This document shows positions 1 to 64,000 of a DNA stretch of 64,000 bases, one piece after another (positions within the stretch are counted from its first letter, which is position 1; the number at the start of each line of letters is the position of its first letter). The DNA lies in assembly GCA_048213135.1 (NCBI GenBank), contig PS015203.1, forward strand, positions 62,001-126,000. The letters are read 5' to 3'. The stretch is from Reclinomonas americana ATCC 50394 (taxonomy: Eukaryota). Position numbers and translations under genes: made by a program. The notes beneath the pieces are model-generated. The model worked only from the letters and a program-made list of their open reading frames with translations. It did not search any database and was not told the origin of the DNA.

Positions 1-2741
<2,741 letters not shown>

Positions 2742-2860
2742 GATTGACGATCGATGGTGTGCAGGACCACTGGTGGACTTTTTCGTCGACAAACTGACGA
2801 GTGCGCGAGGTTCCCGCGCATTCTCCCTTTGCGTGTGTGACCAAGAGAGCGTGCCGTGGT

Positions 2861-14735: not shown

Positions 14736-19713
<4,978 letters not shown>

Positions 19714-35068: not shown

Positions 35069-38000
35069 GTACGTACGTACGTACGTACTACGTACGTACT
35101 ACTACGTACCGTACCGTACGTACGTACCGTACCGTACGTACCGTACCGTACCGTACCGTACGTACCGTANNNNNNNNNNNNNNNNNNNNNNNNNNNNNNN
35201 NNNNNNNNNNNNNNNNNNNNNNNNNNNNNNNNNNNNNNNNNNNNNNNNNNNNNNNNNNNNNNNNNNNNNNNNTTACCGGGTCCGGGGTCCGTTCCTTTCG
35301 TTCGTCGACCGTCCGGTCGCCTACCGTCCGTCGTCGTCTCGTCCGTCCGTCTCGTCCTCCTCACGCCTCTCCTCCTCCTCTCTCTCTCTCTCTCTCTCTC
35401 TCTCCTTGAAATAGAGCGATGATCTCACCTTATCGTCCGACCATGAACCCTCGTAGCGGCAGCCATTCGAGTAGACCAGCACGCCGAGGCCGTTTGCGCG
35501 GTCGTTGCGCCACTCGCCTTGGAACACGTCGCCGTTGTGGTAGTACAGGTCGCCCTGGGTGAGAGGGAGATGACAGTGAGCAGGGTGGAAGGGAGAGGAG
35601 ATGGAAGGAGAACAGAAAGTAGAATAACACAGAAACGGGGGAGACGACAGACTGAATGTCGACAGACTCGGTGACCTGGTGAGAAAGAAACAACTGATGA
35701 AGTGCAAGTGGCAGAGGCACAGACAAAACGGGTGCATAGAGCATGCGTTCTTATCGTCAGATTTAAAGCGACGAGAAAGAGAGAGAGAAGGAGAGAGAGA
35801 GACAGACGGCACCGCGCTCGAGAGAGAACTTCACCAGCGTAAATGTCTCCGAGGCAGAGAGAAAACAGGTGCTATCGTCAGCCACAGAGTGACGAGGANN
35901 NNNNNNNNNNNNNNNNNNNNNNNNNNNNNNNNNNNNNNNNNNNNNNNNNNNNNNNNNNNNNNNNNNNNNNNNNNNNNNNNNNNNNNNNNNNNNNNNNNNN
36001 NNNNNNNNNNNNNNNNNNNNNNNNNNNNNNNNNNNNNNNNNNNNNNNNNNNNNNNNNNNNNNNNNNNNNNNNNNNNNNNNNNNNNNNNNNNNNNNNNNNN
36101 NNNNNNNNNNNNNNNNNNNNNNNNNNNNNNNNNNNNNNNNNNNNNNNNNNNNNNNNNNNNNNNNNNNNNNNNNNNNNNNNNNNNNNNNNNNNNNNNNNNN
36201 NNNNNNNNNNNNNNNNNNNNNNNNNNNNNNNNNNNNNNNNNNNNNNNNNNNNNNNNNNNNNNNNNNNNNNNNNNNNNNNNNNNNNNNNNNNNNNNNNNNN
36301 NNNNNNNNNNNNNNNNNNNNNNNNNNNNNNNNNNNNNNNNNAGAGAGAGAGAGAGAGAGAGGAGAGGAAGGCAGAGGATGCTTGTGTCACCGAGACTGTG
36401 AAACAAGAGACGCATGGTACAAGAGTTGTCATCGCCGGAGCGCAAAAGAAGGAAGAGTGACTCAGTAACAGAGAGGGCGAGGCACAGCAAAGAAACAAAG
36501 AGATACTGAGAGAGAATGACCCTGCGGCCGAGAAAAGAGCCGCAGTGCAAGAGGATAGCTGCAGGAGTGGGAGAGAAGGAAGAGTGACTCAGCAACAGAG
36601 AGGGCGAGGCACACCAAGGAGACTAACAAATACTGAGAGAGGATGCCAATGTGGCTGAGAAGAGTGTAAAAGGGAGAAAAAGAGAGACTTTCCAACTCCC
36701 CACCCCCCTACACGATACCACAACCACCCTCCCTTTGTCACTCTTCCCCCTCTGCCACCCTCTTCCCTTCCCCCACCCCTTCCCCCTTTGCCACCCTCCC
36801 CCCTTTGCCACCCTTCCCCCTCCACGCACCTGCCCATGCTTCTTGCCCGCCAGCCAATCACCGACATACTTGTCGCCCTCGGCATATGTTAGCGTGCCCT
36901 TGCCGTGCGCCTTGTCGTCCTTCCACTGTCCCTCGTAGCGTTCGCCATTGACATATGTCAGTGTGCCCTGACCCTCCTTGACGTCGCGCACAAACTCGCC
37001 CTCGTATTTGTTGCCGTTGGGGAATATGTATGTACCCCGTCCGTGCATCTGCCCGTCGACCCACTCGCCATCGTACACTCCACCGTCGGCGTAATAGTAC
37101 TTGCCGAGGCCGTGCATTCGACCTGCGACAAACGGGAGGGGTGGGATTGAGCACAGCGCGCGTGCGCACACATCAACATTCCATCTCCAGCACGCACCAT
37201 CTACCCAGTCGCCCTCGTACTTTTCGGCCACGCTGCCGTCGGGTGCGGCGTAGGTGACCACACCGCGACCGGAGCGCCGATCCTCCTTCCACTCGCCGTC
37301 GTACTTGTCTCCGTTGGCGTACACGTACATGCCTGCAGTCGGCAGTGAGCACAGAAAGAGGAGCACTCGCCCGCGCGCCATGCGCACACACCTCTGCCGT
37401 GCATCTTTCCGTTCTTCCACTCGCCCTCGTATCGGTCGCCGTCGGCGTACACCAACTGGCCGCGACCGTGAATGCGACCCTCGACCCACTCGCCATCGTA
37501 GCGGTTGCCGCTGGCGTAGTAGCAAGTGCCGTGGCCGTGCACCTGAGCGCAGAGGTGCGAAATTGAGTGGATATTCAAGAGATAATCATGACACACCGAA
37601 ACCGACCTTGTCGTCCACCCACTCGCCCTCGTATCTGCTGCCGTCGCTGTACACGTAGGTTCCGATGCCGTGGCGCTTGCCGTGCACCCAGTCGCCCTGC
37701 AGAGAAGAGGAAGGGGATGCGTGAGCAAGATCCAAGATGCAATTCGCCATGCACCAAGACGAATTGGACATCGCATTGATCCAAAATGTCATGTGTCTTC
37801 CACTTTCCCTCTCTCTCTCACCGATGCTGCAGCCGCTTGTTGCTGCTGCTGCTGCTGCTGCTGCATCGCCGTCGCCATCAACTCTCGCTGTCTACGCTCC
37901 TCACAACTCTGACACCGACTGCACGACCGCTCACTGCTGGCATCGCTACGCGACCGCCGTGAACTGCGACTGCGATGCCGATGCCGCTCTTCCACCACCT

Positions 38001-41237: not shown

Positions 41238-44200
41238 TCACAGCACCACACCTGCAGCCTCTCTTGCACGTCGTCGACAGAACATCAGCGCAGTGACCGC
41301 ATCCTTCGTATCCTGATGCCGTTCACCAAGCACCGCTCGACAACCATCAACACACTCCACCAATATTGCTTCTGCCTCGGCACACCGTTTCACCCTCGTG
41401 AGCACAATACCACAATTGCGCATCACAAACAATGTCTTCACATGCAAGTCTCCAAGTACCTCCCGCCGGGCGTGCAGGCACTCAAGTAACAAACCAGCAG
41501 CCTCCGCCATTGATTCCGGTGTGTTCTGCCGATTGAGTGAATTCGAAAGATTGCACATCGAGATGAGAGTGTCGGGATGGCGAGCACCAACTGCTGCTCG
41601 TCTCAACAGCAAGCATTCTCTGTCGAGTCGAATTTTCTCCTCCAGACGCGCACCATCTTCGATACACAAAGCCACGTCACTCATGGACGCCAGTGTGTCG
41701 GGATGTTCTGTTCCAAGCACCAGTCGTCGAACTTCCCAGCACTGTCGATAAAGAGTCTCCGCATCAGCAAACCGTTTCCGATCAAAATGGGTCAATGCCC
41801 TATAAAAGAGCGCTGTCAGCGAGTCCGGATGACTCTCACCCAGTGTCGCGCACTGCCGCTCATGACACTGCACCAAGCGTGGCAAGTCGCCTGAAAAGTG
41901 ACCAAACCACATCAAGCACCTAAAGGCGTCAATTTTATCGAGCACAGTCATCTCGCCAGTGCCATCTCCCTCCCACTCCTCGCACAACCCCCACGCATGC
42001 CCCCACGCTGTTTTGCGCTCATTCCCCTGAAGAAGCATGGAATGCAACCATCCTTGACACTTTGCCACCACGATGGCGAACCGTCGTCGCATTGGACTCA
42101 TCTCCATATCTCCAACTTCATGGTGTGCACACTCCGTCACGCGTTGAACAAGTGAACCAGCCACAGCTGCATCGAAGCCGACTGAAGGCAGTCGACCACC
42201 TTCACACAGCTCACCAATCCACTCCACCGCGCCACACTGCACCAGCAGCCCATTCACACCAACAGCATTCCTCGCCCACATCCCGTCGTCCTCACCCAAC
42301 CGTCGCCACACCGGGTGCAGCACACTGAGCAAGTCACGAGACACCAGCAGCACGCCGTCACTGTCAATCTGTGAATCAATCCCATTCAACACACAACACA
42401 CAAGTCGCACAATCAGTCGCTGCATCCGTGACACGGCATCTCCACACCGTCCCACAATCCACCCAGCAATCTCGTCGTGCACTCGATACTCCATCACCAC
42501 GTTGCTCTCCCTCACCTGCTCACCACATAATACACGAGCCACAAAATCCATGCTGCCACTGACACCCACCGTCACCAGATTCGACAAACACAGACCCTCC
42601 AGCACATCCTCCACTCCTTCCTCAACTCCACCACCAATCACCAACTCGTCACGCCGTACACGCACTCTTCGCTCCTCTTCCTCACTCATCTCGTCAAACT
42701 GCAGCCGCTCACCCACCACCTCGGGAGCACGACGTCGTCTCTGCCGTGCCAGCTCATGCAGTCGCAGTCGACGCACACACTGGCCCAACTCCACCAATCG
42801 ACTTGCCGCCTCCTCATCTTCATCACCATCACCATCCACAGCCATCGTCATATCGGGAATCACACGCAGCACGCCCAGCGCCACTCGTGCGAGTGCCACT
42901 GTCACCGACAAGCCGAGCTCCTTGCACGCCGTGATCAGCACCAACAGACGACGTGCTGCTGCTGTCTGTGACATCACATTGCATTCCAGTAGCTGTGAAA
43001 GTGCATCACCACCGATGCCACTCAGTACCTCCTCCAGTCGCGCTCCCACCAGCTGCGCAGGTGATTGGGACAGCAACCAGCTGCATGCCAGAAGGGAGAG
43101 AAGTAGTGAGTCTTCTCATGCACACCACTCCCCCACGCACTCAAAGCACTCACCCAACACAAGCACTCACTCGCAGTGCACTCTTCTCCTGTTGTCCACT
43201 CTCCAGCGCCTCCACAATTCGTCGACGCACGTCCCCCGACACCCTTTGCAGAAGTCGCTCCTCCACCAGCTGAACAATGTCCTCATTCTCCACGCTCTCC
43301 ACTCTCACGCACTCGACCTCTGCCTCGTGCATCATCGAGTCACGGATCTCATCCGTAACCCGCCCATATCGACTCGTCACCACCACAATCGGTGCCACCA
43401 TTCCACCTGCACACAGAAACACACACGATGTACATCAAGTCAGGATCCAACATCCAAGCAAGAATGAGAATTCTCTCTCTCCTGAAACGCACCCTCATCA
43501 GCACATTGAACAACACTCCTCACTTGCTCCGCCGATCCCACGTTGTCCAACACCATCACTCCACTCGATGCGTGCATCAACTGTCGCAGGAGACGGCGTG
43601 CTGGCTCCACTTCGCCACTTGCCAGCAGCGCATCCACCTGGCCGGCCATCCTTCGTCCCTCCACTTCATCCACTCGCATCTGTGCCGACACAAAGGCACG
43701 CAGACACTCGCCCAGAGCACTCCCCGCCTGCAGCACGTGGCAAGGGGAGAGTAGAGTCAGAATGACAACAGCAGGAGATGACGCAACATGAAAAGACAAC
43801 ATGCATGTTCCTCAGCACACCTTCACATGCTCCCTTGCATCACCCACATGACCACGCATCTCCACAGACACGGCCGATCCCTTCCATCGACGAGTCGCCA
43901 GCAACTCGGTCACCAGCAGCTCGGCTAGGAACGACTTGCCAGTGCCACCATCACCCGTCAGCACCACCATGATTGGTTGGTGTGCTGCGCAGGAATCATC
44001 CGCCACCAGACAACATGATGAGGCACGCGAATGTGGAAGAAGGAGGGGAGAGGGAGAATGAGGAGCACCCAACCTTCCACTGCCGCCACGATGCGCGTGG
44101 CGAGTGAGGCTGCCAGTGCCCGCCGACTTGGGAAGCGGAATGCAGTCACTGGATTGACGGTGCGGGCGATCAGCAGCGATGTCTTGGGTGTGAGACTGCT

Positions 44201-45623
44201 GTCTGGTGCTGTGTGGCACAGAGAGGAGTGAGTGAAGGAGCACAGCGATGCACAATCCATGCAGATCAACCATGGAACGCACCTGCAGCTGAGAGAGAAG
44301 AGGGAGAGGCGCTCATCGGGTCGTCTCCTTCGTGCATTTCCATCCGCATCTGATCAATTGACATGCAAGTGAGGAACAGAAAGTTATCTGCAAATGACCG
44401 CCTCGTCATGCAAACCCACTCAACTTGCTCCATGTGTGCCAGCAGCGAGTCTTGGTCAGCCTGACTCAGCGCACCTGCATTCACACACGCACAACCAAGA
44501 GAGCATCAGCATCCACATTCAATCCAAACACAAACAAGCACCAGCCATCTCTCTCCTCTGCACTCACCATCACGAGCCTCGTTCAGCTGCACCACCAATT
44601 CCTCCTCCATATCCCTGCCAATCTGCAGTCGCCGCACAAGCTGATGCAACTCGCCCTCTCCTCCTCCTCCGTCGCCGAGCAGATCTAGAGGCACAAAGAG
44701 TGCACGAGCTCGTGCGGGACTCGCATGCTCAAACACCTCCCTCATTCGCTCAATTGCATTGCGCTGTGTGACAACGAGAGAGTGAGAGGCACAATCACAC
44801 ACAGAGAGAGGGAGACCACACTCCTCCTCCTTCCTTCTCATTCTCGTACACACTCACCACATCGCCAGCTGGAATCAGACGATCCGGCTCGTCTCGCGGG
44901 TGCTCTCGATGACCCGCCAGCAGCAAGATCGAGCAGCACAGCATCGCACCAAATGAACTGCAGTCGTGCAGCTGGCCTCGCTGATGCCACTCGCGCACCA
45001 GCTGCCGCTCCTTCTCGTTCAACTGGACACACATGTCCACTCCGTCTGGCATCGTGCTGCACGGTGGGGAAAGCCACGAAGACAGAATGGATGCTGGTGA
45101 GTGAGGGAATGTGTGGCAAGAAAGAGGGCGATTCATCAGGGATAGAACGTGGAGATGAGTGTGGTGAGACAATGAAGAGTGCGAGAATGGGGAAGAAAGG
45201 GGGATGACCAGTGCATTACAATCTGCCACTTGCTCTGGCAATCTTTTCTCTTCTCCTCCATCTGCATCTTGCCATCTATGTGCTTCGGCATCCTCCCCCA
45301 CACGCACTCACCGCACATCACGCTCACTCGGCGCCTTGCACCACTCGTCAACGTGATTCACACCGGGATACGAATCGAGAAACGCCGGCAGCACTTGCTC
45401 GAGTTTGGATTGCAGAGCGCGGGTGCATGGACGTGACAGGGCTTTGGCAAGGCGAATCATGCATCCCTCATCACCAGGAACACCATCGTGATGATGACTG
45501 CACGACAGGAGAGGAGAAGAGATAGAACGAATCATACACAAGGTGAGAATGATGATGATGACGTAACAACAACAAAACGAGAGACACACGCAACTCAAGC
45601 GGCACTCCACTCCCACTCGCCAT
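41238..45623 (-). CDS. NLR-like STAND protein copy 1: putative HEPN - NB-ARC-like - TPR (11 exons)
   Basis: ATG 45623 (MASGSGVP); Walker A GDGGTGKS, Walker B VMVLDNV, sensor VVVTSR, MHD-like YRVHD, 42-aa TPRs (LGxxHPDTL); all junctions GT-AG and in phase. Confidence 0.85.
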
Positions 45624-46006: not shown

Positions 46007-49000
46007 TCATTGTAACAGCACGCCGGCCCTTCTTGCACGTCGCCGGCACTCGGTCAACATCCTAATGGTATTCATAGTCTTTGGATTCTCTTCACCAAGC
46101 ACCGCTCGCCGACCATCCACGCACTCCACCAGCAGCGCCTCTGCCTCCGCCCATTGTTGCTGCTCCATGAGCAGAATGCCGTCGTTGAATATTGTCTCCA
46201 ATGTTCGTTCATGCCTATCGCCCAGCAACTCACGTCGTCCCTCCACGCACTCACGGTACAAGTCAACAGCTTCCGCCAGTGATTCTGGTGTGCTTTGCTG
46301 CTCAAGAGCATCAGCAAGATTGTTCATAGAGATGAGAGTCTCGGGATGCTTGTCCCCCAGCGATGCTCGCTTCAACCACAAGCATTCTCTGTCCAGTTGC
46401 ACTCTCTCCTCCAAGCGACTGTCGTCTTGGATACACACGGCAACGTCGCTCATTGACACCAGTGTATCAGGATGCTCAGCACCAAGAACGTGTGCCTGCA
46501 TCTCCCAACACCGTCGATAGAGTATCTCTGCAGCAGCAAACTGCTGCCGCTTGTAGTGGTCTACGCCCTGGTTATACAGCGTCATAAGCGAGTCCGGGTG
46601 ACTCTCACCCAGTGCCGCGCACTGACGCTCATGGCACTGCACCAGCAGTGGCAACTTCTCTGAACAGAGAGCAATCCACATAAAGCACCGCAGTGAGTCA
46701 AGTCTGTCCAGCACTGTCATCTCGCCAGTGCCATCTCTCTCCCTCTCCTCACATAAACGCCACGCTTGCTGCCACGCCGCTTTGCGCTCATCCCGCTGAA
46801 AAAGCATGCGATGCAATCGTGCTTGACACTTTGCAGCCGCCATGGAAAGCTTTCGTCGCGTTGGACTCATCTCAACATCGCCAGCTGCGCGTTCTTCACA
46901 CTCCGTCACACGCCTCACAATCGACGAGGCTACAGTTGCACCAAACCCACGTGGCGGAAGTTCTCCACTGCTACACAACCCAGCCATCCACTCCACTCCT
47001 CCGAATTGTACATGTAGCCCATTCACACCAACAGCATCTCTCACCCACATGCTGTCATCCTCGCCCAATCGTCGCCACACTGTGTGAAGCACACCGAGCA
47101 CGTCTCGTGATATTAACAACTTACCATCGCTGTCATTCCACAGATCAATGCCATTCAACACACAACACACAAGTCGCACGATCAGTCGCTGCGCCCGTGA
47201 CACTGCACCTCCACACCGTTCAACAATCCGCTCAGCAATCTCGTCGTGCACTCGATACTCCATCGCCACGTTGCTCTCCCTCACTTGCTCACCACAAAGC
47301 ACACGAGCCACACTGTCCATGCTGCCACTGACACCCACCGTCACCAGATTCGACAAGCACAGACCCTCCAGCACCTCCACCACCTCGTCTTCTCCGTCAC
47401 CACCACCACAAACCAACTCATCACGCTGCGCATGCACTCGCTGCTCCTCCTCCTCACTCATCTCGTCAAACTGCAGTCCCTCACCCACAACCGCAGGTGC
47501 ACGTCGTCGCCTCTCCTGTGCCAGCCCATGCAATCGCAGTCGACGCACACACTGGCTCAACTCCACCAGTCGACATGCCGCCTCTTCATCCTCATCCACA
47601 GCAGCCTGCCCACCACCATCACCATCCACAACCGCCGCCACATCGGGTATCACTCGCAGCACACCCAGTGCCACTCGTGCAAGTGCCCCAGTCACCGGCA
47701 AGCCGAGTTCCTTGCACGCCGTAATTAGAACCAACAGACGACGTGCTGCAGCTGTCTGTGACATCACATTGCGTTCCAGTAGCTGTGAAAGTGCATCACC
47801 ACCGATGCCACTCAGTACCTCCTCCAGTCGCGCTCCCACCAGCTGTGATGGCGATTGTGACAGCAACCAGCTGCATGACGAAGAAAACAAGAGAGAAGAG
47901 TGAGTTGTCTCATTCACAACCACTCACACAATCACTCACTCACTCACCCAACACAAGCACTCACTCGCAGTGCACTCTTCTCCTGCTGTCCACCCTCCAG
48001 CGCCTCCACAATCTGTCGTCGCACATCCCCCGACACCCTTTGCAGAAGTCGCTCCTCCACCAGCTGCACAATGTCCTCGTTCTCTACACTCTCCACTCGC
48101 ACGCACTCGACCTCCGCCTCGTGCATCATCGAGTCACGGATCTCATCCGCAACCCGCCCATATCGACTCGTCACCACCACAATCGGTGCCACCATTCCAC
48201 CTGCACACACGCATGATGAACATCAAGTCAGGATCAAAAATCCAAGCAAGAACGAATTCTCTCTCTCCTGAAACGAACCCTCATCAGCACATTGAACCAC
48301 ACTCCTCACTTGCTCCGCCGATCCCACATTGTCCAGCACCATCACTCCACTCGATGCATGCATCAGCTGTCGCAGGAGACGACGCGCTGGCTCCACTTCG
48401 CCACTCGCCAGCAGCGCATCCACCTGACCGGCCATCCTTCGTCCGTCTACTTCGTCCATTCGCATCTGTGCCGTCACAAAGGCACGCAGACACTCGCCCA
48501 GAGCACTCTCCGCCTGCAGCATGCGGCAAGGAGAGAGGGAGAGAGTCAGAATGACAGGGAAGGAGATGGTGCATGAAAGAAAACATGCATGCTCATCAGC
48601 ACACCTTCACGTGCTCCCTCGCATCACCCACATGACCACGCATCTCCACCGACACGGCCGATCCCTTCCATCGACGAGTGGCCATCAATTCGGTCACCAG
48701 CAGCTCGGCCAGGAATGACTTGCCAGTGCCACCATCACCCGTCAGCACCACAATGATTGGACGATGTGCTGCGCAAGAGTCATCCACCACAAGACAAACA
48801 TGATAAGACAAACGAATGTGAGGGAAGAAAGTAAGGGAGAATGAGAAGGAACATCCGACCTTCAACAGCATCCACAATGCGCGTGGCGAGTGAGGTTGCC
48901 AGTGCACGTCGACTTGGGAAGCGGAATGTGGTCACTGGATTGACGTTGCGGGCGATGAGCGGTGTCCTGGGTGGGCGACTGCTGTCGAACGCTGTGTGGC

Positions 49001-50381
49001 ACAGAGTGAGTGAGAGTGAGCACAGCAATCCATGTTGAATGCAGATCAACCGTGGAACACACCTGCAGTTGAGAGAGAAGAGGGAGAGGCGCTCATCGGG
49101 TCGTCTCCTTCGGGCATTTCCAATCGCATCTCCTCAAACCACGTAAAATGAGAAACTGAAAGTTATCTGCAAATGACCGCCTCGTCATGCAAACCCACTC
49201 AACTTGCTCCATGTGTGCCAGTATCAACGACCGGTCCGCTTGACTCAGCGCACCTGCATTCACACACAACCAAGACAGCATCAGCTTCCACATTCAATCA
49301 CATTATCCACACACTCAAGCGCCAGTTATCTGTCTCCCCACTCACCATCACGAGCCTCGTTCAGCTGCACCACCAGCTCCTCCTCCACATCCCTGCCAAT
49401 CTGCAGTCGTCGCACAAGCTGGCGCAACTCGCCCTCTCCTCCACTCGTCCTGTCACCAAGCAGAGGCACAAAGAGTGCACGAGCTCGTGCGGGACTCGCC
49501 TGCTCAAACACCTCCCTCATTCGCTCAATTGCATTGTGCTGTGTAACAATGAGAGAGTGTGAGGCACAATCACACAGACAGAGAACACACTCCTCCTCCT
49601 TCCTATCTCCTTCCCATTCTCACACACGCACCACATCGCCAGCTGGAATCAGACGATCTGGCTCGTCTCTCGGGTGCTCTCGATGACCCGCCAACAACAA
49701 GATCGAGCAGCACAGCATCGCATCAAACAGACTGCAGTCGTGCAGCTGGCCTCGCTGATGCCACTCGCGCACCAGCTGGCGTTCCTTCTCGCTCAACTGG
49801 ACACACGTGTCCACTCCATCGGGCATGGTGCTGCTTGTGGGGAAGGGAAAAAAAAAAAGAAGAGGATGCTGGTGAGTGAGGGAGATGTGCGACAAGAAAA
49901 AAGGGGATTCAACGGGATAGGAGGTGGAGACGAGTGCGAGAACGGGGAGAGAGATGGCCAGAGCGTCACCGTCAGCCATGTGCCTGTAACAATCTTTTCT
50001 CTTCTCTCCACTCTCATTCACATCTGCATAATGCCATCGTGTGCTTCCACATCCTCCCCCACACACACTCACCGCACATCACGCTCACTCGGCGCCTTGC
50101 GCCACTCGTCAACGTGATTCACACCGGGATACGAATCGAGAAACGCCGGCAGCACTTGCTCGAGTTTGGATTGCAGAGCGCGGGTGCATGGACGTGACAG
50201 GGCTTTGGCAAGACGCATCATGCATTCCTCGTCACCGCCATCGTGATGATGACTGCACGAGAGGAGTGGAGAGTGACAGGGAACGAATCACACAATGTGA
50301 GAGATGATGATGATGCATCTGACAACAACACAATGAGACAGAGACACGCAACTCACGCGACACTCCACTCCCACTCGCCAT
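46007..50381 (-). CDS. NLR-like STAND protein copy 2: putative HEPN - NB-ARC-like - TPR
   Basis: Same exon series and motifs as copy 1; ATG 50381, stop 46007. Confidence 0.85.
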
Positions 50382-50801: not shown

Positions 50802-53800
50802 TCACAACACAACACCGGCCTTTCTTGCACGTCGCCGGCACTCGGTCAACATCCTAATGGTATTCATAGTCTTTGCATTCTCTTCACCAAGCACCGCTCG
50901 CCGACCATCCACGCACTCCACCAGCAGCGCCTCTGCCTCCGCCCATCGTTGCTGCTTCATGAGCAAAATGCCGAAGTTACACATCGTCGACAGCATGCCT
51001 TCATGTCTGTCACCCAGCACCTCACGTCTTCCCTCAAAGCACTCACGGTACAAGTCAACAGCTTCCGCCAGTGATTCCGGAGTGTTTCGTCGCTCGACAG
51101 ATAATGCAAAATTGTTCATCGAGGCGAGAGTCTCTGGATGCTTGTCCCCCAGCGATGCTCGCTTCAACCGCAAGCATTCTCTGTCCAGTTGCACTCTCTC
51201 CTCCAAGCGACTGTCGTCTTGGATACACACGGCAACATTGCTCATGCACTTCAACGTGTCGGGATGCTCAGCACCAAGAACGTGTGCCTGCATCTCCCAA
51301 CACCGTCGATAGAGTATCTCTGCAGCAGCAAACTGCTGCCGCTTGTAGTGGTCTACGCCCTGGTTATGCAGCGTCATTAGCGAGTCCGGGTGACTCTCAC
51401 CCAGTGCCGCGCACTGACGCTCATGGCACTGCACCAGCAGTGGCAACTTCTCTGAACAGAGAGCAAACCACATAAAGCACCTCAAGGCGTCAATCCTATC
51501 GAGCACAGTCATCTCGCCATAGCCATCCCTCTCCCACTCCTCGCACAACCCCCACGCATGCCCCCACGCTGTTTTGCGCTCATCCCGCTGAAAAAGCATG
51601 CGATGCAATCGTGCTTGACACTTTGCAGCCGCCAGAGAGAACCTTCGTCGCGTTGGACTCATCTCAACATCGCCAACTGCGCGTTCTTCACACTCCGTCA
51701 CACGCCTCACAATCGACGAGGCTACAGTTGCACCAAACCCACGTGGCGGAAGTTGGCCACTGCTACACAACCCAGCCATCCACTCCACTCCTCCGAATTG
51801 TACAAGCAACCCATTCACACCAACACCATCACTCGCCCAAATGCCGTCATCCTCACCAAACCGACGCCACACCGGGTGCAGCACACTGAGCAAGTCACGA
51901 GACACCAGCAACACGCCGTCGCTGTCATTCCAAAGATCAATGCCATTCAGCGCACAACACACAAGTCGCACGATCAGTCGCTGCACTCGTGATACTGCAT
52001 AGCCACACCGTCCCGCAATCCACCCAGCAATCTCGTCGTGCACTCGATACTCCATCACCACGTTGGTCTCCCTCACTTGCTCACCACAAAGCACACGAGC
52101 TACACTGTCCACGCTGCCACTGGCACCCACCGTCACCAGATTCGATAAACACAGACCGTCCAGCACATCCTCCACCTCGTCTTCTCCGTCACCACCACCA
52201 CCCACCAACTCATCACGCCGTGCGCGCACTCTTCGCTCCTCCTCCTCACTCATCTCGTCAAACTGCAATCGCTCACCCACCACCTCAGGCGCACGCCGTC
52301 GCCTCTGCCGTGCCAGCTCATGCAGTCGCAATCGACGCACACACTGACTCAACTCCACCAGCCGACCTGCCGCTTCCTCATCTTCATCACCATCACCATC
52401 CACAACCACCGCCACATCGGGAAGCACACGCAGCACACCCAGCGCCACTCGTGCAAGTGCCAGCGTCACAGGCAAGCCGAGTTCCTTGCACGCCGTGATC
52501 AACACCAACAGACGACGTGCTGCTGCTGTCTGCGACATCACATTGCGTTCCAGCAGCTGCGACAGCGCATCGCCACCAACACCACTCAGCACCTCATCCA
52601 GTCGCGATCCAACCAGCTGTGCGGGTGATTGCGACAACAACCAGCTGCACGATACAAAAGAGGAAGAAGAGTGAGTCTTCTCATCCGCACACCTTACTCA
52701 TTCACACATAACACTCACCCAACACAAGCACTCACTCGCAGTGCACTCTTCTCCTGTTGTCCACTCTCCAGTGCCTCCACAATCCGCCTTCGTACGTCCC
52801 CCGACACCCTTTGCAGAAGTCGCTCCTCCACCAGCTGCACAATGTCCTCGTTTTCCACACTCTCCACTCGCACGCACTCGACCTCCGCCTCGTGCATCAT
52901 CGAGTCACGAATCTCATCAGCCACCTGTCCGTATCGACTCGTCACTACCACAATCGGTGCCACCATTCCACCTGCACACACGCATGATGAACATCAAGTC
53001 AGGATCAAAAATCCAAGCAAGAACGAATTCTCTCTCTCCTGAAACGAACCCTCATCAGCACATTGAACCACACTCCTCACTTGCTCCGCCGATCCCACAT
53101 TGTCCAGCACCATCACGCCACTCGAGGCATGCATCATCTGCCGCAGGAGACGGCGTGCTGGCTCCACTTCGCCACTTGCCAGCAGCGCATCCACTTGACC
53201 GGCCATTCTTCGTCCCTCTACTTCGTCCATTCGCATCTGTACCGTCACAAAGGCACGCAGACACTCGCCCAGAGCACTCTCCGCCTGCAGCATGGGGCAG
53301 GGAGAGAGAGAGTCAGAATGCCAACAGAATGACGAAGCATCATGAAAGACAACATGCATGTTCGTCACACACCTTCACATGCTCCCTCGCATCACCCACA
53401 TGACCACGCATCTCTACCGACACGGCCGATCCCTTCCATCGACGAGTCGCCAGCAACTCGGTCACCAGTAGCTCGGCCAGGAATGACTTGCCAGTGCCAC
53501 CGTCACCCGTCAGCACCACCACGATCGGATGATGTGCTGCACAGAATCATCCAGCACCAGCCATCACGATGAGGCACACGAATGTGGAGAAGGAAGGGAG
53601 AATGAGAAGGAGCACCCAACCTTCCACTGCCGCCACGATGCGCGTGGCGAGTGAGGTGGCCAGTGCACGTCGACTGGGGAAGCGGAATGCAGTCACTGGA
53701 TTGACAGTGCGGGCGATGAGAGGTGTCTTGGGTGGGCGACTGCTGTTCGGTGCTGTGTGGCACAGAGAGGAGTGAGTGAATGAGCACAGCGATGCACAAT

Positions 53801-55111
53801 CCATGCAGAACAATCATGGAACGCACCTGCTACTGGAGGAGAGGAGGGTGAGGCGCTCATCGGGTCGTCTCCTTCGTGCACTTCCATTCGCACCTGATCA
53901 ATCGCATACAAGTGAGAAACTGATTGGTATCTGCAAAAGACCGCTCTCTTGCGCAAATCCACTCAACTTGTTCCATGTGCGCCAGCAGCGAGTCTTGGTC
54001 AGCCTGACTCAGCGCACCTGCATTCACACACAACCAAGAGAGCATCAGCATCCACATTCAATCCAAACACAAACAAGCACCAGCCATCTCTCTCCCTCCA
54101 CTCACCATCACGAGCCTCATTCAGCTGCACCACCAATTCCTCCTCCACATCCCTGCCAATCTGGAGGCGCCGCACAAGCTGATGCAGCTCGCCTTCTTCT
54201 CCTCCTCCGTCGCCGAGCAGAGGCACGAAGAGTGCACGAGCTCGTGCGGGACTCGCTTGCTCAAACATCTCCCGCATTCGCTCAATCGCATTGCGCTTTG
54301 TGACAACGAGAGAGTCTGAGAGCAGAATCACACAGAGAGATCACACTCCTTTTCATCTCCACTCATTCTCACGCACTCACCACATCGCCAGCTGGAATCA
54401 GACAATCTGGCTCGTCTCTCGGGTGCTCTCGATGACCCGCCAACAACAAAATCGAGCAGCACAGCATCGCATCAAACAGACTGCAGTCGTGCAGCTGGCC
54501 TCGCTGATGCCACTCGCGCACCAGCTGGCGCTCCTTCTCGTTCAACTGGACACACATGTCCACTCCGTCTGGCATGGTGCTGCATTGTGGGGATGGAAAA
54601 AAAAAAGAAGGATGCTGGTGAGTGAGGGAGATGTGCGACAAGAAAAAGGGGATTCAACGAGATAGGAGGTGGAGTCGAGTGCGAGAACGGGGAGAGAGAT
54701 GGCCAGAGCGTCACCGTCAGTCATGTGCTTGTGACAATCTTTTCTCTTCTCTCCACTCTCATTCACATCTGCATAATGCCATCGTGTTCTTCCACATCCA
54801 CCCTAAACACTCACCGCACATCACGCTCACTTGGCACCTTGCACCACTCGGCGACATGATTCACACCGGGATACGAATCGAGAAACGCCGGCAGCACTTG
54901 CTCGAGTTTGGATTGCAGAGCGCGGGTGCATGGACGTGACAGGGCTTTGGCAAGGCGAATGGCACATTCCTCATCGCCAGCATCGTGATGATGACTGCAC
55001 GAGAGAGAGAGAGGAGAGTGACAGGGAACGAATCACACACAAAGAATGATGCATCTGACAACAACACAATGAGACACGCAACTCACGCGGCACTCCACTC
55101 CCACTCGCCAT
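50802..55111 (-). CDS. NLR-like STAND protein copy 3: putative HEPN - NB-ARC-like - TPR
   Basis: Same exon series and motifs; ATG 55111, stop 50802. Confidence 0.85.
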
Positions 55112-55530: not shown

Positions 55531-58500
55531 TCATTGTAACAGCACGCCGGCCCTTCTTGCACGTCGTCGGCACTCGGTCAACATCCTAATGGTATACATA
55601 GTCTTTGGATTCTCTTCACCAAGCACCGCTCGCCGACCATCCACGCACTCCACCAGCAGCGCCTCTGCCTCCGCCCATCGCTGCAGCTTCATGTGCAAAA
55701 TGCCGAAGTTACACATCGTCGCCAATGTATCTTCGTCCCTGTCACCCAGCACCTCACGTCTTCCCTCAAAGCACTCACGGTACAAGTCAACAGCTTCCGC
55801 CAGTGATTCCGGAGTGTTTCGTCGCTCGACAGATAATGCAAAATTGTTCATCGAGGCGAGGGTCTCTGGATGCTTGTCCCCCAGCGATGCTCGCTTCAAC
55901 CACAAGCATTCTCTGTCCAGTTGCACTCTCTCCTCCAAGCGACTGTCGTCTTGGATACACACGGCAACATGGCTCATTGACACCAGTGTATCAGGATGCT
56001 CAGCACCAAGAACATGTGCCTGTATCTCCCAGCACCGTCGATAGAGTATCTCTGCAGCAGCATACTGCTGCCGCATGTAGTGGTCTACGCCCTGGTTATG
56101 CAGCGTCATTAGCGAGTCCGGGTGACTCTCACCCAGTGCCGCGCACTGACGCTCATGGCACTGCACCAGCAGTGGCAAGCTCTCTGAACAGAGAGCAATC
56201 CACATCAAGCACCGCAGTGAGTCAAGTCTGTCCAGCACTGTCATCTCGCCACTGCCATCACTCTCCCACTCCTCACATAAACGCCACGCTTGCTGCCACG
56301 CCACTTTGCGCTCATCCCACTGAAAAAGCATGCGATGCAATCGTGCTTGACACTTTGCAGCCGCCATGGAGAACCTTCGTCGCGTTGGACTCATCTCAAG
56401 ATCGCCAACTGCGCGTTCTTCACACTCCGTCACAAGTCTCACAATCGACGAGGCTACAGTTGCACCAAACCCACGTGGCGGAAGTTGGCCATTGCTGCAC
56501 AACCCAGCCATCCACTCCACTCCGCCGAATTGTACAAGCAGCCCATTCACACCAACAGCATCTCTCACCCACATGCTGTCATCCTCACCCAACTGTCGCC
56601 ACACTGCGTGCAACACACCGAGCAAGTCACGTGATACCAACAGCACGCCGTCACTGTCATTCCACAGATCAACGCCATTCAACACACAGCACACCAGTCG
56701 CACAATCAGCCGCTGCACTCGTGACACTGCATCGCCACATCGTCCCGCAATCCACCCAGCAATCTCGTCGTGCACTCGATACTCCATCACCACGTTGCTC
56801 TCCCTCACTTGCTCACCACACAACACACGAGCCACACTGTCCATGCTGCCACTGACACCCACCGCCATCAGATTCGACAAGCACAGACCCTCCAGCACCT
56901 CCTCCACTCCGTCGTCACCACCGCCCACCAACTCATCACGCCGTGCACGCACTCGCTGCTCCTCCTCCTCACTCAACTCGTCAAACTGCAGTCGCCCACC
57001 TACCGCCTCGGGCGCACGTCGTCGCCTCTGCCGTGCCAGCTCATGCAGTCGCAGTCGACGCACACACTGACTCAACTCCACCAGTCGACCTGCCGCTTCC
57101 TCATCTTCATCACCATCACCATCCACAACCACCGCCACATCGGGTATCACTCGCAGCACACCCAGTGCCACTCGTGCGAGTGCAGCAGTCACTGGCAAGC
57201 CGAGTTCCTTGCACGCCGTGATCAACACCAACAGACGACGCGCTGCTGCTGTCTGTGACATCACATTGCGCTCCAGCAGCTGCGACAGCGCGTCGCCACC
57301 AATGCCACTCAGCACCTCCTCCAGTCGCGCGCCCACCAGGTGCGCTGGCGACTGGGACAGCAACCAGCTGCATGCCAGAAGGGAGAGAGAAGAGTGAGTC
57401 TTCCCATCCACACCACTCTCCCACGCACTCAAAGCACTCACCCAATACAACCACTCACTCGCAGTGCACTCTTCTCCTGTTGTCCACTCTCCAGCGCTTC
57501 CACGATCCGTTTTCGTACATCCTGTGACACCTTGTGGAGCAGTCGCTCCTCCACCAGCTGCACAATATCCTCGTTCTCCACGCTCTCCACTCGCACGCAC
57601 TCGACCTCTGCCTCGTAAACCATCGAGTCACGAATCTCATCAGCCACTCGCTCATACCGACTCGTCACCACGACGACCGGTGCCACCATTCCATCTGATG
57701 ATGCACATCAAGTCAGGATCCAACATCCAAGCAAGAATGAGAGTTCTCTCTCATGAAATACACACCCTCATCAGCACATTGAACAACATTCCTCACTTGC
57801 TCCGCCGATCCCACATTGTCCAGCACCATCACTCCACTCGATGCATGCATCAGCTGTCGCAGCAGTCGACGTGCTGGCTCCACCTCGCCACTTGCCAGCA
57901 GCGCATCCACCTGACCGGCCATCCTTCTTCCCTCTACTTCATCCACACGCATCTGCGCCATCACAAAGGCACGAAGACACTCGCCAAGGGCACTCTCCGC
58001 CTACAGAATGTAGCAGGGAGAGAGAGTCAGAATGACAGTAGAAGGAGACGACGAAGCACGAATGACGACATGCATGTTCCATCAGCACACACCTTCACAT
58101 GTTCCCTCGCATCGCCCACATGACCACGCATCTCCACCGACACGGCCGATCCCTTCCATCGACGAGTCGCCTGCAACTCGGTCACCAGCAGCTCCGCCAG
58201 GAACGACTTACCAGTGCCACCGTCACCCGTCAGCACCACCATGATTGGTTGATGGGCTGCACAAGAAATCATCAACCACCAGACAACATGATGAGGCACA
58301 CGAATGTGGAAGAAGGAGGGGAGAAGGAGAAGGAACACCCAACCTTCCACAGCGTCCACAATGCGTGTGGCGAGCGAGGAAGCCAGTGCACGCCGACTCG
58401 GGAAGCGGAATGTGGTCACCGGATTGACGGTGCGGGCGATAAGCGATGTCTTGGGTGGGCGGCTGCTGTCTAGTGCTGAGTGCCACAGAGGAGTGAGTGT

Positions 58501-59942
58501 ATGAGCAGCAATGCACATTCAATGCAGATCTATCATGGCGCGCACCTGCAGCTGAGGGAGAAGAGGGAGAGATGCTCATTGTGTCAAATCGTTGGTGCAT
58601 TTCCATTCGCATCTGATAAATGACAAGCAAGTGAGAAACTGATAGGTATCTGAAAGTTACCGCCTCATGAAAATCCACTCAACTTGCTCCATTTGTGCTA
58701 GCAGCAACGGCCGGTCCGCCTGACTCAGCGCACCTGCATTCACACACAACCAAGAGAGCATCAGCATCCACATTCAATCCAAACACAAACAAGCATCAGC
58801 CATCTGTCTCTCTCCACTCACCATCACGAGCCTCGTTCAGCTGCACCACCAATTCTTCCTCCACATCCCTGCCAATCTGCAGCTGCCGCACAAGCTGATG
58901 CAGCTCGCCCTCTCCTCCTCCTCCTCCGAGCAGAGGCACAAAGAGTGCACGTGCTCGTGCTGGACTCGCTTGCTCAAACACCTCCCTCATTCGGTCAATC
59001 GCATTGCGCTGAGGCAATGAGAGAGTGAGAAACATAATCACACAGAGAGGGAGATCACACTCTTCCTCCTCCTTCCCATCTCGCCTCCCTCTACACACTC
59101 ACCACATCACCAGCTGGAATCAGACGATCCGGCTCGTCTCGCGGGTGCTCTCGATGACCCGCCAGCAGCAAGATCGAGCAGCACAGCATCGCACCAAATG
59201 AACTGCAGTCGTGCAGCAGGCCTCGCTGACGCCACTCGCGCACCAGCTGACGCTCCTTCTCGTTCAACTGGACACATTTGGCCACTCCGTCTGGCATGGT
59301 GCTGCGCGTGGGGAAAGGGACAAACAAAGAGAGGATGCTGGCGAGTGAGGGAGATGTGCGACAAGAAAAAGGGGATTCATCAGGGATGGAATGTGGAGTC
59401 GTGTGGTGAAATAATGAAGAGTGAGAGATGGGGAGAAAGGGTGACCAGTGCAGTCACTATCTGCCACTTTCTAGCAATCTTCTCTCTTCTCTCTCTCACT
59501 CATTCACATCTCCATCTGCATCCTGCCATCGTGTGCTTCCACATCATCCCCACACACTCACCGCACATCACGCTCACTCGGCGCCTTGCACCACTCGGCA
59601 ACATGATTCACACCGGGATATGAATCGAGAAACGCCGGCAGCACTTGCTCGAGTTTGGATTGCAAAGCGCGGGTGCATGGATGAGACAGTGCCTTGGCAA
59701 GGCGAATCACGCATTCCTCATCACCAGCATCGTGATCATGACTGCACGGGAGAGGAGAGTGACAGGGAACGGATCACACACACACACACACACACATACA
59801 CATACACACACACACATACACATACACACACACATACACACACACAGTGTGAGAACGATGATGATGATGACGATGATGCATCTGACAACAACATAATGAG
59901 GGAGACACGCAACTCACGCGGCACTCCACTCCCACTCGCCAT
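55531..59942 (-). CDS. NLR-like STAND protein copy 4: putative HEPN - NB-ARC-like - TPR
   Basis: Same exon series and motifs; ATG 59942, stop 55531. Confidence 0.85.
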
Positions 59943-60003: not shown

Positions 60004-60042
<39 letters not shown>

Positions 60043-60414
60043 TTGTCACAATACGAAGCGGAGAAATGCAACAACTCACTCTCCTTCCTTTCCTCTCTCA
60101 CACACGCACGCACAGTGGAAAAAGGCACTTACACAGAGCAGAAACAAGAACAAACACGCACTGCTCACACGCTGGTTATTTACACAATTGTGGGACATGA
60201 CTTCGTCGGTGTGTGCATTGCTTGCCTACAACACAGAGCAGCGAGCCGACGAGGAGAGATACTTGGTACCCGATACTTGTGCTCACAGATGTGGCATGGT
60301 GCACGCGCCGGTGGAATCATCGGGGTAACACGACGACGTCGCAAAGGCGTTCACGGAGAAGAGAGGATCGGCTTGTAACAAACAAAACACTTCATTCACC
60401 GGTACCACAATTAT

Positions 60415-63400
60415 TCACTGCTTCACGCCGGCTTCTCTAGCACGCCGCCGGCACTCGGCCAGTGCAGCAACGGCCGCCATTGTATCGGAATGGCCTTCAT
60501 CAAGGACCTTTTCCATACCACGCACACACTCCACCAGCAGCGCCTCCGCCTCGGCCCACCGCTGGTGCCTCATGAGCATGTCACCATAGTTACACATCGT
60601 CTCCAAAGTCTCTACATGCATTCTTCCAAGTACCACTCTATGTCCCTCCAAGCACTCTCGGTACAAATCTGCAGCTTCTGCCAGTGATTCCGGCGTGTTT
60701 TGTCGTTCCAGAGCATCAGCAAGATTGTTCATCGAGATGAGAGTGTCTGGATGCCGATCTCCCAGTTTCGAACGCGACAACTGCAAAGACTGTCTCTCAA
60801 GTTGAATCCTTTCCGCCAGACGACTGTCATCTTGAATAGATGCAGCAAGATTGCCCATGGACACCAAAGTGTCGAGATGCTCATCACCGAGAACCGATTG
60901 TCGCATGTCAAAGCATCGTCGGAAGACAGCTTCCGCATCGGTATATCCGCCGATATTAAAGTGATATTTGCCCTGCCAGTACATGGCCAATAGCGAGTCC
61001 GGATGACTGTCACCCAGTGTCGCACGCTGCCGCTCATGACACAGCACCAGTTGAGACAAGTTGTTTGAATAGAATGCACACCACATCAAGCACCGCAACG
61101 TGTCAATCTTATCTAGCACAGTCATCTCGTCACCGTGATCTCTCTCCCACTCTTCGCACAGACGCCACGCCTGCTGCCACGCCGCTTTGCAATCAGCAGC
61201 CCGACGGAGCAACAACCAAGCTTGGCACTTTTCTGAAGCAATCGCTAATCGTCGTCGCAGTGGACTGATCTCAACATCACCATCTTCACCTTCTCCACAT
61301 TCTGACACTCGTCGCACAAGCAATGAGGCCACTGCGTCGTCAAATCCAACAGATGGCAATTTTCCTCCGACACACTGCAAACCGATCCATCCCAAAGCTA
61401 CACACTGTCCCAGCAACCCATTCACACCAACAGTATCACTCGCCCACATGTCGTCGTCGTCGCCCAACCTTCGCCACACAGTGTTCAGTACACTAAGCAA
61501 GTCACGCGACACCAAAAGCACACCATCACTGTCGTTTAGTGTATCAATGCCATTCAGCACACAACACACCAGTCGCACAATCAGCCGCTGTGTCCTGGAT
61601 ACAGCATACTCCCACCGTCCAACAATCCACCTAGCAATCTCGTTGTCAACTTGATACTCAACAACAACACCGCTCCGTTGCTCAATCGAGCCACACAGTA
61701 TTTGGGCCAAACTATCCATGCTGCCACTGACTTCCACCGTTACCAGATTCGAGACGCACAGACCCTCAAGCACATCCTCCACTCCGTCGTCCTCACCACC
61801 ACCACCACCCACCAACTCATCACGCCGTGCACGCACTCGCTGCTCCTCCTCCTCACTCAACTCGTCAAACTGCAGTTCCTCACCCACCACCTCACGCGCA
61901 TACCGTCGCCTCTCTCGAGCCAGCCCATGCAGTCGCAGTCGGCGAACACACTGACCCAACTCTACCAACCGGGTTGCCGCCTCCTCATCTTCATCCGCAG
62001 CAGCCTGCCTACTATCACCACCGTCATCAGGAATCGCCAAATCGGGAATTACCCGCAACACACCCAGAGCCACTCGTGCAAAGCCTGGTGTCACTGGCAA
62101 GCCGAGTTCCTTGCACGCCGTGATCAGCACCAACCGACGACGTGCTTCTGCTGTCTGCGACATCACATTGTGTTCCAGCAGCTGCGACAGCGCCTCTTCA
62201 CCAACGTCACGCAGGACTTCTTCCAGTCGTGCGCCGACCAGCTTTCCTGGAGACTGCGCATGCGACAGCAACCAGCTGCACCACAAGGAGAAGAGAGAAG
62301 AGTTAGGCATCACATCCACACCACTCTTACTCACCCAATCACTTACTTAACACAAGCGCTTACTCGCAAGGCACTCTTATTCTGCTGTCCGTTCTCCATC
62401 GCCTCCACAATCCGCCGTCGCACCGCTCCCGAAACCACTCCACGAAGTCGCTCTTCCACCAATTGCACAATATCTTCTTTCTTCACATCCTTCACTTGCT
62501 CGCACTCCACAATTGCATGATGTTCCATCGAGTCACGAATCTCATCCGCCAACCACCCATGTCGACTCGTAACCACCACAATCGGTGCAACCAGTCCATC
62601 TGCACGTAGAAACACAGACACACACACGATGGACAAAAGGTCAGGACCAAACATCCAAGCAAGAATGGATTTCTCTCTCACGCACACGCACCCTCGTCAG
62701 CACATTGAACAACATTCGTCACTTGCTCTGACGATCCCACATCGTCCAGCACCAATACTCCACTCGATGCATGCATCAGCTGTCGCAGGTGACGACGTGC
62801 TGGCTCCACCGCACTACTCGCCAGCAGCGCATCTACCTCACCGGCCATCCTTGGTCCCTCCTGTGTATCCACTCGCATCTTCGCCGTCACAAACGCACGC
62901 AGACACTCGCCCAGAGCACGCTCCGCCTGCAGCGCATGTCAAGAGAGACCAAGTCAGAAAGGCAACAGAAGGATCTCAGATGGTGCTTCAGGAAAGACAA
63001 CATGCACCTTCACATGCTCTCTCGCATCACCCACATGGCCTCGCATCTCCACCTGCACGGCAGATCCTGTCCACCGACCGGTGGCCTGCAACTCGGTCAC
63101 CACAAGGTCGGCCAGGAACGATTTGCCAGTGCCACCATCACCCGTCAGCACTACAATAATTGGACGTCTTGCTATAGACGTACATCGTCATCAAAGACAA
63201 TTTGATAAGACAAATGAGTGTGGAAAAGAAAGAAAGACGGAAACGACCAACCTTCAGCAGCACACACTATGCGTTCTGCAAGTGAGATTGCCAATGCACG
63301 GCGACTGGGGAATCGGTAAGTAGTCACTGGATTGATGATGCGGGCAATGAGCGGTGACCGAAGTACTGTGGCATCGAGTCAGTAACTGAGCACTGTAGAG

Positions 63401-64000
63401 TCCGTGCACCAGTGCAAATGTTGCTTGATACATGTACAGATAGTTTCTCTGCTGCTCACCTGGATGCAAGCGCAACCGAAACACGTTGAGCGCATACTCG
63501 GACAACCTGTGCCGCTGTACGGGTTCTTGTTGTCGGTCCAGTGGTTGCGCGTTGGGAATCAGAAGCCTGACTTGTTCGTGCCAATCATGCAGCGGCAAGT
63601 GCCCGTGGCTATTGATGGCCGCAACGAGCGCTTGCGCATATGGCGATGTGTAAACTGCAACGCACCGAACTTGCGCACGTCAGAAAAACCAGTAAACGGT
63701 ACGACGGAATTCTAGTCGTGACGCACCGCCCTCGTATGCTTCCCAGCCGTGATAGCAAGCAAAACTAACAAACACGTTTTGTGCCAGAACGCTCTCCTCA
63801 ATCGGGCCCACACCTTGTTGGAAGATGCTTCGCCCAGGCGCACAGAGAACAAGTGAGAAACAACAACACAAGCATCGCTCTGCAAAAACGTCTCACACCT
63901 ATCGAAGGAACGACAACAGTTCGTTAACAAGACGATTACTGTGCGCGTTGACGCTTTCTGGCGCAGTTGGTTCATGCAGTTCGCGATAAGCTTTAGCGAC
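60415..64000 (-). CDS. NLR-like STAND protein copy 5: caspase-like (peptidase C14) - NB-ARC-like - TPR (5' end off window)
   Basis: NTPase/TPR exons are homologous to copies 1-4 from 63365 downward. Upstream exons (64000-63899, 63827-63727, 63669-about 63460) splice in phase to VIVLLTNCCRS..NVFVSFACYHGWEAYEG..SPYAQALVAAI..HEQVR..QQEP. Confidence 0.8.

Follow-up and report, generated by a model that had tools for sequence, protein, structure and literature searches.

A caspase-fold protease fused directly to a NOD-type ATPase has been viewed as a simple, and possibly ancestral, wiring of regulated cell death, with the receptor, the adaptor, and the caspase being split apart later in animals (PMC4986451, in the portion of that article available to us). 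Whether a eukaryote encodes such a fusion in one chain is the question raised by a 64,000-nucleotide (nt) stretch of contig PS015203.1 from Reclinomonas americana ATCC 50394 (assembly GCA_048213135.1, positions 62,001 to 126,000; hereafter the window). The window carries five tandem copies of one gene (41–64 kb, minus strand), and a preliminary description of its sequence reported that a caspase-like domain is hidden across three short exons of the fifth of these (hereafter copy 5), where it would be fused directly to an NB-ARC ATPase as an apoptosome-like device. Our analysis confirms the observation and supports its interpretation in part. We propose, with a probability of roughly 0.6, that copy 5 codes for a single polypeptide comprising an N-terminal protease-like domain of the C14 type (clan CD), an NB-ARC-like P-loop ATPase of the STAND class, and a C-terminal sensor region made up of TPR_10 and TPR_12 repeats.

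A probable caspase-type head divided among three exons

The splice models of copy 5 were obtained by inspection and scripted joining of the window sequence, and all coordinates of this gene are on the minus strand. The stretch 63999–63460 resolves into three exons separated by introns with GT..AG ends. Exon 1 (63899–63999), whose frame is still open at the end of the window, encodes a predicted helix followed by a hydrophobic strand ending in NCCRS, which bears the candidate catalytic Cys. Exon 2 (63727–63827) encodes a linker and the strand NVFVSFACYHGWEAYEG of the p10-like part, and exon 3 (63460–63654) supplies an S-P-Y..AL helix, the motifs HEQVR and QEP, and a last strand that closes the C14-like domain. 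Intron 1 (63828–63898; 71 nt; GTGTGAGA...GAAG) is in phase 2 and intron 2 in phase 1, because exons 1 and 2 measure 101 nt apiece. The preliminary description had placed these introns at 63898–63828 and 63726–63670 with the same phases; their GT..AG ends and the 101-nt exons bear this out, and scripted exon joining reproduces exactly the spliced peptide that it had written.

Two of these boundaries have alternatives. For intron 2, the acceptor chosen originally (63670) gives an intron of 57 nt (GTGCGT...CAAG), and a second and equally canonical acceptor, TTGCAG, situated 15 nt downstream (exon start 63654), extends it to 72 nt (63655–63726) while keeping the frame and yielding a slightly better C14 score. 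This intron is itself in frame, with a single TGA, and contains a CTGAC branch-like site. For intron 1, an alternative of 47 nt (63797–63843; GTGCGCCT...TTGAG) is stop-free and gives the top C14 score of 24.3 bits; its GAG acceptor, however, is weak, and its length falls below the 71–110 nt of the remaining introns of the gene.

As had been stated, the domain is not visible as one open reading frame (ORF): the best of 1,386 unspliced ORF pieces from the window scores 5.2 bits against our own Peptidase_C14 profile. The latter was built from 18 actinobacterial domains, i.e., from one bacterial phylum, and comes with no curated threshold. In sampling that phylum, 45 of 301 genomes matched at E ≤1e-8 and 30 loci were fetched, from which we kept those with a match reaching at least position 210 of the Pfam profile and dropped 11 partial ones together with L025, whose genome is flagged as unpublished. 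Joined at the downstream acceptor, the copy 5 peptide scores 19.8 bits against this profile (E 2.3e-8 as a single test); joined at the acceptor of the preliminary description, it scores 18.3 bits (E 7.1e-8, again as a single test). The aligned region runs collinearly through the three exons and spans profile positions 129–250 of 263. Within it, VIVLLTNCCRS aligns on vvll.dcCrs, such that NCCRS falls on the catalytic Cys column, which is Cys in all 18 seeds. The p10-like motifs follow in the order of the profile, with the FACYHGWEAYEG strand on taskddelafeG, S-P-Y-A-Q-A-L on s-v-F-t-a-a-l, and Q-E-P on Q-t-P. Of the C14 pattern that had been read by eye, the Cys motif, the A(C/S)xxx.xA(F/Y)E strand, the S.(F/Y)..AL helix, and QxP all lie on the matching profile columns.

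Several controls bear on the significance of this match. None of 20,000 shuffled peptides reaches 10 bits (maximum 8.8), the reversed spliced peptide scores -3.0 bits, and the exon order 1-2-3 ranks first among the six permutations, with 18.7 bits against 13.9 or less for the others. When all 1,063 stop-free GT-AG models of the stretch were enumerated, 71 of them reached 15 bits (best 24.3), so that the C14 result is not tied to one particular choice of splice sites; after Bonferroni correction for these models (a factor of ~1e3), E is still near 2e-5. When the seeds are split into four disjoint subgroups, the resulting profiles score the peptide at 4.4, -2.3, 4.8, and 8.4 bits (E ≤1.1e-3 in three of the four), values that lie inside the range of -2.7 to 57 bits recorded when true C14 half-domains are scored across subgroups. 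A local hhalign comparison returns P 1.7e-4 over 53 columns at a probability of 49%.

Since intron 2 is in frame, the exon 2-intron 2-exon 3 read-through (122 residues, with the TGA written as X) could also be run against Pfam. PF00656 matches it with 12.0 bits (E 0.17; cut-off 21.4), with residues 17–104 aligning to profile positions 160–223 of 233; this corresponds to the rear of the domain, as expected for exons 2 and 3. The check by a Peptidase_C14 profile that the preliminary description had called for gives a match of 19.8 bits with our own profile, which has no curated threshold, and one below threshold with the curated profile. The sole other Pfam family at E ≤10 for this read-through is Gag_p24 (E 0.078), which we take as a chance match. 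Against PDB sequences, the read-through retrieves only a chance Fab match (E 1.6), and the other frames and the plus strand of 63379–64000 give only chance-level Pfam matches (E at least 0.03). An assignment of the head to the CHAT family (PF12770) was considered and rejected: a CHAT profile that combines the public-assembly protein P0035 with 10 other CHAT proteins gives -2.5 bits, against 19.8 for C14, and Pfam reports no CHAT match. Taken together, these comparisons make it highly probable that the spliced peptide is a divergent homolog of the rear half of the C14 domain, with the position of the catalytic Cys preserved.

In-frame continuity of the head with an ATPase and TPR body

Exon 3 ends at 63460, with a phase 1 donor at 63459 (CCA G/GTGAGC, the slash marking the exon boundary here and below). 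It is followed by intron 3 (63366–63459; 94 nt; GTGAGCAG...CCACAG), likewise in phase 1 and with a TACTGAC branch-like site, which joins the protease-like head to an exon common to all five copies (63252–63365; LRSPLIARIINPVTTYRFPSRRALAISLAERIV...) that lies directly before the P-loop. With this donor and the acceptor CCACAG at 63366, the head is in frame with the shared exon, the P-loop exon (63008–63171; GDGGTGKS), the Walker B exon (62692–62926; VLVLDD), the VVVTSR exon (62347–62599), and the TPR-bearing last exon (60415–62275). The VVVTSR exon ends either at 62347 (donor AA/GTAAGT) or at 62364 (donor CGA/GTAAGC), and the last exon, comprising a helical region, the TPR_10/TPR_12 repeats, and the stop, starts at 62275 or 62253 depending on the intron chosen. 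The resulting model has 8 exons and 7 GT-AG introns of 71–110 nt, and its frame is open for 994 codons, or for 1,007 with the better GTAAGT donor at the last intron, up to a stop at 60415–60417.

Two further features bear on whether head and body belong to one gene. The first 240 residues of the model contain Met at positions 9 and 213 only, with none in exons 2 and 3 or in the shared exon; as there is no Met between residue 9 and the P-loop region, the ATPase would be without a start of its own. Moreover, the body of copy 5 is about 65% identical to those of copies 1–4, with a ratio of nonsynonymous to synonymous substitution rates (dN/dS) of 0.30–0.36; this is like the 0.26–0.33 of the other pairs, indicating that the body is not decaying. 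On these grounds, the head is probably fused to the ATPase body in one gene.

The ATPase itself is recognized with less certainty. A read-through of the P-loop and Walker B exons matches NB-ARC (PF00931) with 20.3 bits (E 3.6e-4; cut-off 23.5) over profile positions 20–121 of 248; AAA_16, with 28.3 bits (cut-off 32.6), scores above it in the same Pfam scan. The segment VVVTSR sits 29 residues past Walker B and may correspond to the hhhTT/SR motif of the STAND ATPases. When scanned alone, the VVVTSR exon and the helical region before the TPRs have no Pfam match. Judged from these motifs and scores, the copy 5 ATPase may fairly be called an NB-ARC-like STAND ATPase. The direct fusion to NB-ARC suggested in the preliminary description is therefore likely with regard to the fusion, given the in-frame phase 1 junction, the one open frame to the stop, the lack of an independent start, and the dN/dS of ~0.3, and falls short with regard to NB-ARC, whose 20.3 bits stay under the cut-off of 23.5.

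The repeats are recognized above their Pfam cut-offs: the last exon matches TPR_10 with 88.5 bits (E 1.9e-25; cut-off 27.5) and TPR_12 with 75 bits (E 5.6e-21; cut-off 30.1). Word-index searches with this exon give 37 matches among longer proteins and 27 among those of near length, which are driven by the TPRs and come mostly from bacterial or metagenomic sources; these searches return no close relative and no self match. The only match of this exon in a genome contig is L001 3001–3261, from an Acidimicrobiales metagenome-assembled genome (OZ220743.1; 39% identity over query residues 45–142), and it covers the helical stretch that precedes the TPRs, not the repeats themselves.

The tandem array and a possible swap of 5' parts

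The long last exons of the five copies lie at 41238–43115, 46007–47923, 50802–52697, 55531–57627, and 60415–62346 on the minus strand. Judged from these exons (41238–62346; dN/dS 0.26–0.36), copies 2–4 are the youngest, with 86–89% amino-acid identity, and copy 5 is the most distant (~65%). Among the five, the caspase-like head is restricted to copy 5: tblastn of the spliced head against the window returns self matches only, with all the other alignments at E of at least 0.96, and hence no head in copies 1–4. The DNA similarity of copy 5 to the other copies breaks at 63352–63359, a few bases into the shared exon and within 7–14 nt of its predicted acceptor. Past the acceptor position that is used in the other copies, copy 5 carries 2 additional bases, on account of which an AG 20 nt further downstream is needed to stay in frame.

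Copies 1–4 carry a different upstream part of ~1.3 kb (58657–59773 in copy 4; homologous stretches at 44181–45540, 48964–50294, and 53725–55041; all on the minus strand), which is 83–85% identical from one to another and lacking in copy 5. Its exon-like ORFs look helical and have no Pfam match; this part may represent an N-terminal head of a different kind or else a small gene of its own that ends near 58659. Just before the shared exon, copies 1–4 also possess a short exon (58545–58612, minus strand, and its homologs) that opens with ATG in three of the four and with GTG in copy 3, and that ends in a phase 1 CAG/GTGCG donor matching the donor of copy 5 exon 3 in both phase and position. As read from the sequence, the upstream pattern is consistent with an exchange of the 5' part at an intron. 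Given that no other copy has the head and that the similarity to the paralogs starts at the very next exon, the head could have been acquired, or retained, in copy 5 via recombination at that intron, i.e., by exon shuffling.

The remainder of the window has ordinary eukaryotic gene content, and its genes are readable only with short GT-AG introns. The neighboring ORFs include those for a Metallophos domain (16708–17934, minus strand; E 1.5e-18), RCC1 repeats (21380–22804, plus strand; E 2.8e-18), MORN repeats (36623–37585, minus strand; E 4.7e-37), and a weakly matching BTB domain (2170–3126, minus strand; E 0.0086). Between the genes there are long (TG/CA)n and (GA/TC)n microsatellites and runs of N that mark assembly gaps, e.g., at 59770–59880 and 60010–60060, with many more in 1–40000.

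Possible mechanism and competing explanations

What copy 5 displays directly is its exon structure, its C14 homology including a conserved Cys position, a frame that stays open down to the stop, and the TPRs. By analogy to the bacterial metacaspase-NACHT/NB-ARC proteins, the fungal protease-NLRs, and Apaf-1/caspase-9, we suggest that binding of a ligand by the TPRs would release the ATPase for nucleotide-dependent oligomerization, that this would gather the fused protease heads and activate them by proximity, and that the activated heads would in turn cleave a substrate involved in death or defense. In its full form, this proposal describes a eukaryotic single-chain "apoptosome" at work, namely a TPR-NOD receptor that has its own divergent C14 protease switched on by oligomerization and that stands at the edge of a tandem family exchanging N-terminal heads at a phase 1 intron. 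We put this fuller version forward tentatively and regard it as doubtful in its entirety.

Several results weigh against a single chain with a C14 protease, and we consider them here along with the explanations that they favor. Those relating to the residues and the divergence of the head raise the prospect that copy 5 encodes one chain with a dead protease, i.e., a caspase-fold pseudoenzyme acting as a scaffold or an oligomerization module. Just 27 codons separate the Cys from the end of the window, such that the front half of the domain, with the region of the catalytic His, lies beyond base 64000; in the part at hand, the Cys motif is preceded by Asn instead of the usual Asp and followed by SF instead of the usual SG, with Phe for the Gly that comes after Cys-x-Ser. 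These substitutions, along with the front half lying outside the window, allow for an inactive pseudoprotease. The head is also very divergent. An exhaustive phmmer comparison of the read-through of exons 2 and 3 with 1.84 billion representative proteins gives no hit at E ≤1e-3, a word-index search of the exon 3 ORF against longer proteins finds none, and metagenome scans with peptide patterns of exon 3 and with an exact 41-mer of exon 1 are likewise empty; no alignment backs the conservation of the head. Set against this, the Cys and its surrounding strand are retained and the p10-like motifs align well with those of the C14 domains, and we therefore hold a dead head to be rather unlikely.

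A second explanation invokes two genes: a stand-alone metacaspase-like gene would end upstream, copy 5 proper would be 5'-truncated or separately started, and the in-frame junction would be a coincidence. Agreement of frame over one intron has, after all, a one in three chance of arising at random, and without splicing at 63460 the caspase-like frame runs on for 69 codons to a TGA at 63256–63254. Furthermore, the exon preceding the shared exon in copies 1–4 begins with ATG in three of the four, which means that the ATPase genes may begin there and that the helical exons upstream may make up a gene of their own. However, a separate copy 5 ATPase would be left without a start, the Met residues being those at positions 9 and 213 alone, and yet its body keeps more than 860 open codons at ~65% identity to the paralogs and a dN/dS of 0.30–0.36. 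Equally, the C14-like domain stops exactly at a consensus donor, CAG/GTGAGC, behind which come the TACTGAC branch-like site and, after 94 nt, a CAG acceptor. This makes a pair of genes unlikely, and we retain the reading of copy 5 as a single chain.

Further adverse results concern the splice sites, two of the three introns having alternatives, and the assignment of the domains. For the ATPase, NB-ARC stays below its Pfam cut-off, and our own NB-ARC profile, a small and weak one of five sequences, gives only 0.5 bits on the spliced protein. For the head, the stronger C14 score comes from a self-built, single-phylum profile, the curated PF00656 match remains below its cut-off (12 vs 21.4 bits), the single head exons have no match in Pfam or among PDB sequences, and the predicted frame is the best by codon usage in only two of the three short exons. 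That the three pieces are not of the caspase type at all, or are non-coding, is nevertheless very improbable: although every curated-library test of the head is below threshold, homologs are lacking, the codon-usage signal is weak, and a protein atlas look-up with exon 3 alone gives only unnamed clusters at ≤0.90, within the stated noise of that tool, empirical and analytic estimates of significance concur for the spliced match, which runs collinearly over three exons with the Cys on the catalytic column, Pfam independently places exons 2 and 3 at the end of PF00656, and the signal survives correction for 1,063 splice models.

If the fuller version with a working single-chain device is true, copy 5 would represent, in a eukaryote and with introns, the counterpart of the metacaspase-STAND proteins of bacteria, and a living example of the all-in-one state that has been proposed to precede the adaptor-mediated activation of caspases in animals. 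Heads of NLR-like proteins that are split by introns and evolve fast slip past ORF-based searches and searches of single exons with profiles. The array also constitutes a natural experiment, with one protease-headed copy placed beside four with another 5' part, in which the contribution of the head can be tested.

Comparison with known systems

The novelty implied by the preliminary description was overstated, in that the combination of a caspase-type protease, a STAND ATPase, and repeats in one chain is common in bacteria (PMC3501461), and CHAT- or S8-headed versions occur in fungi (10.1101/2021.06.03.446900), going by the sections of both reports that we could consult. In bacteria, metacaspases frequently occur as fusions with NACHT and with WD40 or TPR repeats, and two with NB-ARC are described from Chloroflexus (Asplund-Samuelsson et al., 2012, PMC3501461, in the same sections). 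More generally, enzymatic heads, metacaspases among them, are common in bacterial STAND proteins according to the available part of Dyrka et al. (PMC4986451). Like these proteins, copy 5 would present an N-terminal C14-type protease domain, a STAND ATPase, and a repeat sensor in one predicted chain, and it is with bacterial C14 domains that its head has the best sequence match. Unlike them, it is eukaryotic, has 7 short introns, and belongs to a tandem array with a single headed copy. Its head is also far more divergent (19.8 bits on a half-domain), and its NB-ARC match is below the cut-off.

Among eukaryotes, the closest parallels in architecture are offered by the fungal NLRs. The 12 head classes recorded for these include Peptidase S8 and, in the part of Dyrka et al. 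at our disposal (PMC4986451), no caspase-type head. Genes for NLRs with CHAT and S8 heads often adjoin gasdermin genes (Clave et al., 10.1101/2021.06.03.446900; PMC12881547; PMC9815663; each as far as its accessible text goes). Copy 5 would share with the HET-Q2-like NLRs a eukaryotic all-in-one layout of protease, NOD, and repeats (TPR, ANK, or WD40), as well as the proposed role of a proximity-activated protease that cuts a death effector; it differs from them in that its head is C14 and not CHAT (19.8 vs -2.5 bits). In placozoan and amphioxus surveys, CARD- or DD-NB-ARC proteins and LRR- or TNFR-caspase hybrids are reported, and no caspase-NB-ARC fusion appears in the portions of those articles open to us (PMC6321704, PMC2575513, PMC2246300). 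Our literature search found no eukaryotic C14-type head on an NB-ARC-like/TPR body, though the supplementary domain tables of the papers may list one.

P0035 (1275 residues) is a ready comparator, in being a protein with a clan CD protease head on the same type of body: it has a CHAT domain at 98–365, a precomputed NB-ARC match, DUF7779, and TPR_10/12. Copy 5 would resemble it in having a clan CD protease head before an NB-ARC-like/TPR_10-12 body, with the TPRs matching at E 1.9e-12 (29% identity over 28% of the query). Unlike that of copy 5, the head of P0035 is a CHAT domain, and the similarity of the two proteins is confined to the TPRs.

In the animal apoptosome of Apaf-1/CED-4, a NOD ATPase with a C-terminal repeat sensor controls caspase-9 by induced proximity. 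Copy 5 would likewise pair a NOD-type ATPase and a repeat sensor with a caspase-fold protease domain; whereas the apoptosome recruits a separate caspase through CARD-CARD contacts and senses via WD40 repeats, the copy 5 protease would be covalently fused, dispensing with an adaptor domain, and the repeats are TPRs. The layout itself is known, and what copy 5 would add to it is a eukaryotic head of the C14 type that is split by introns, extremely divergent, and probably swapped in within a tandem array.

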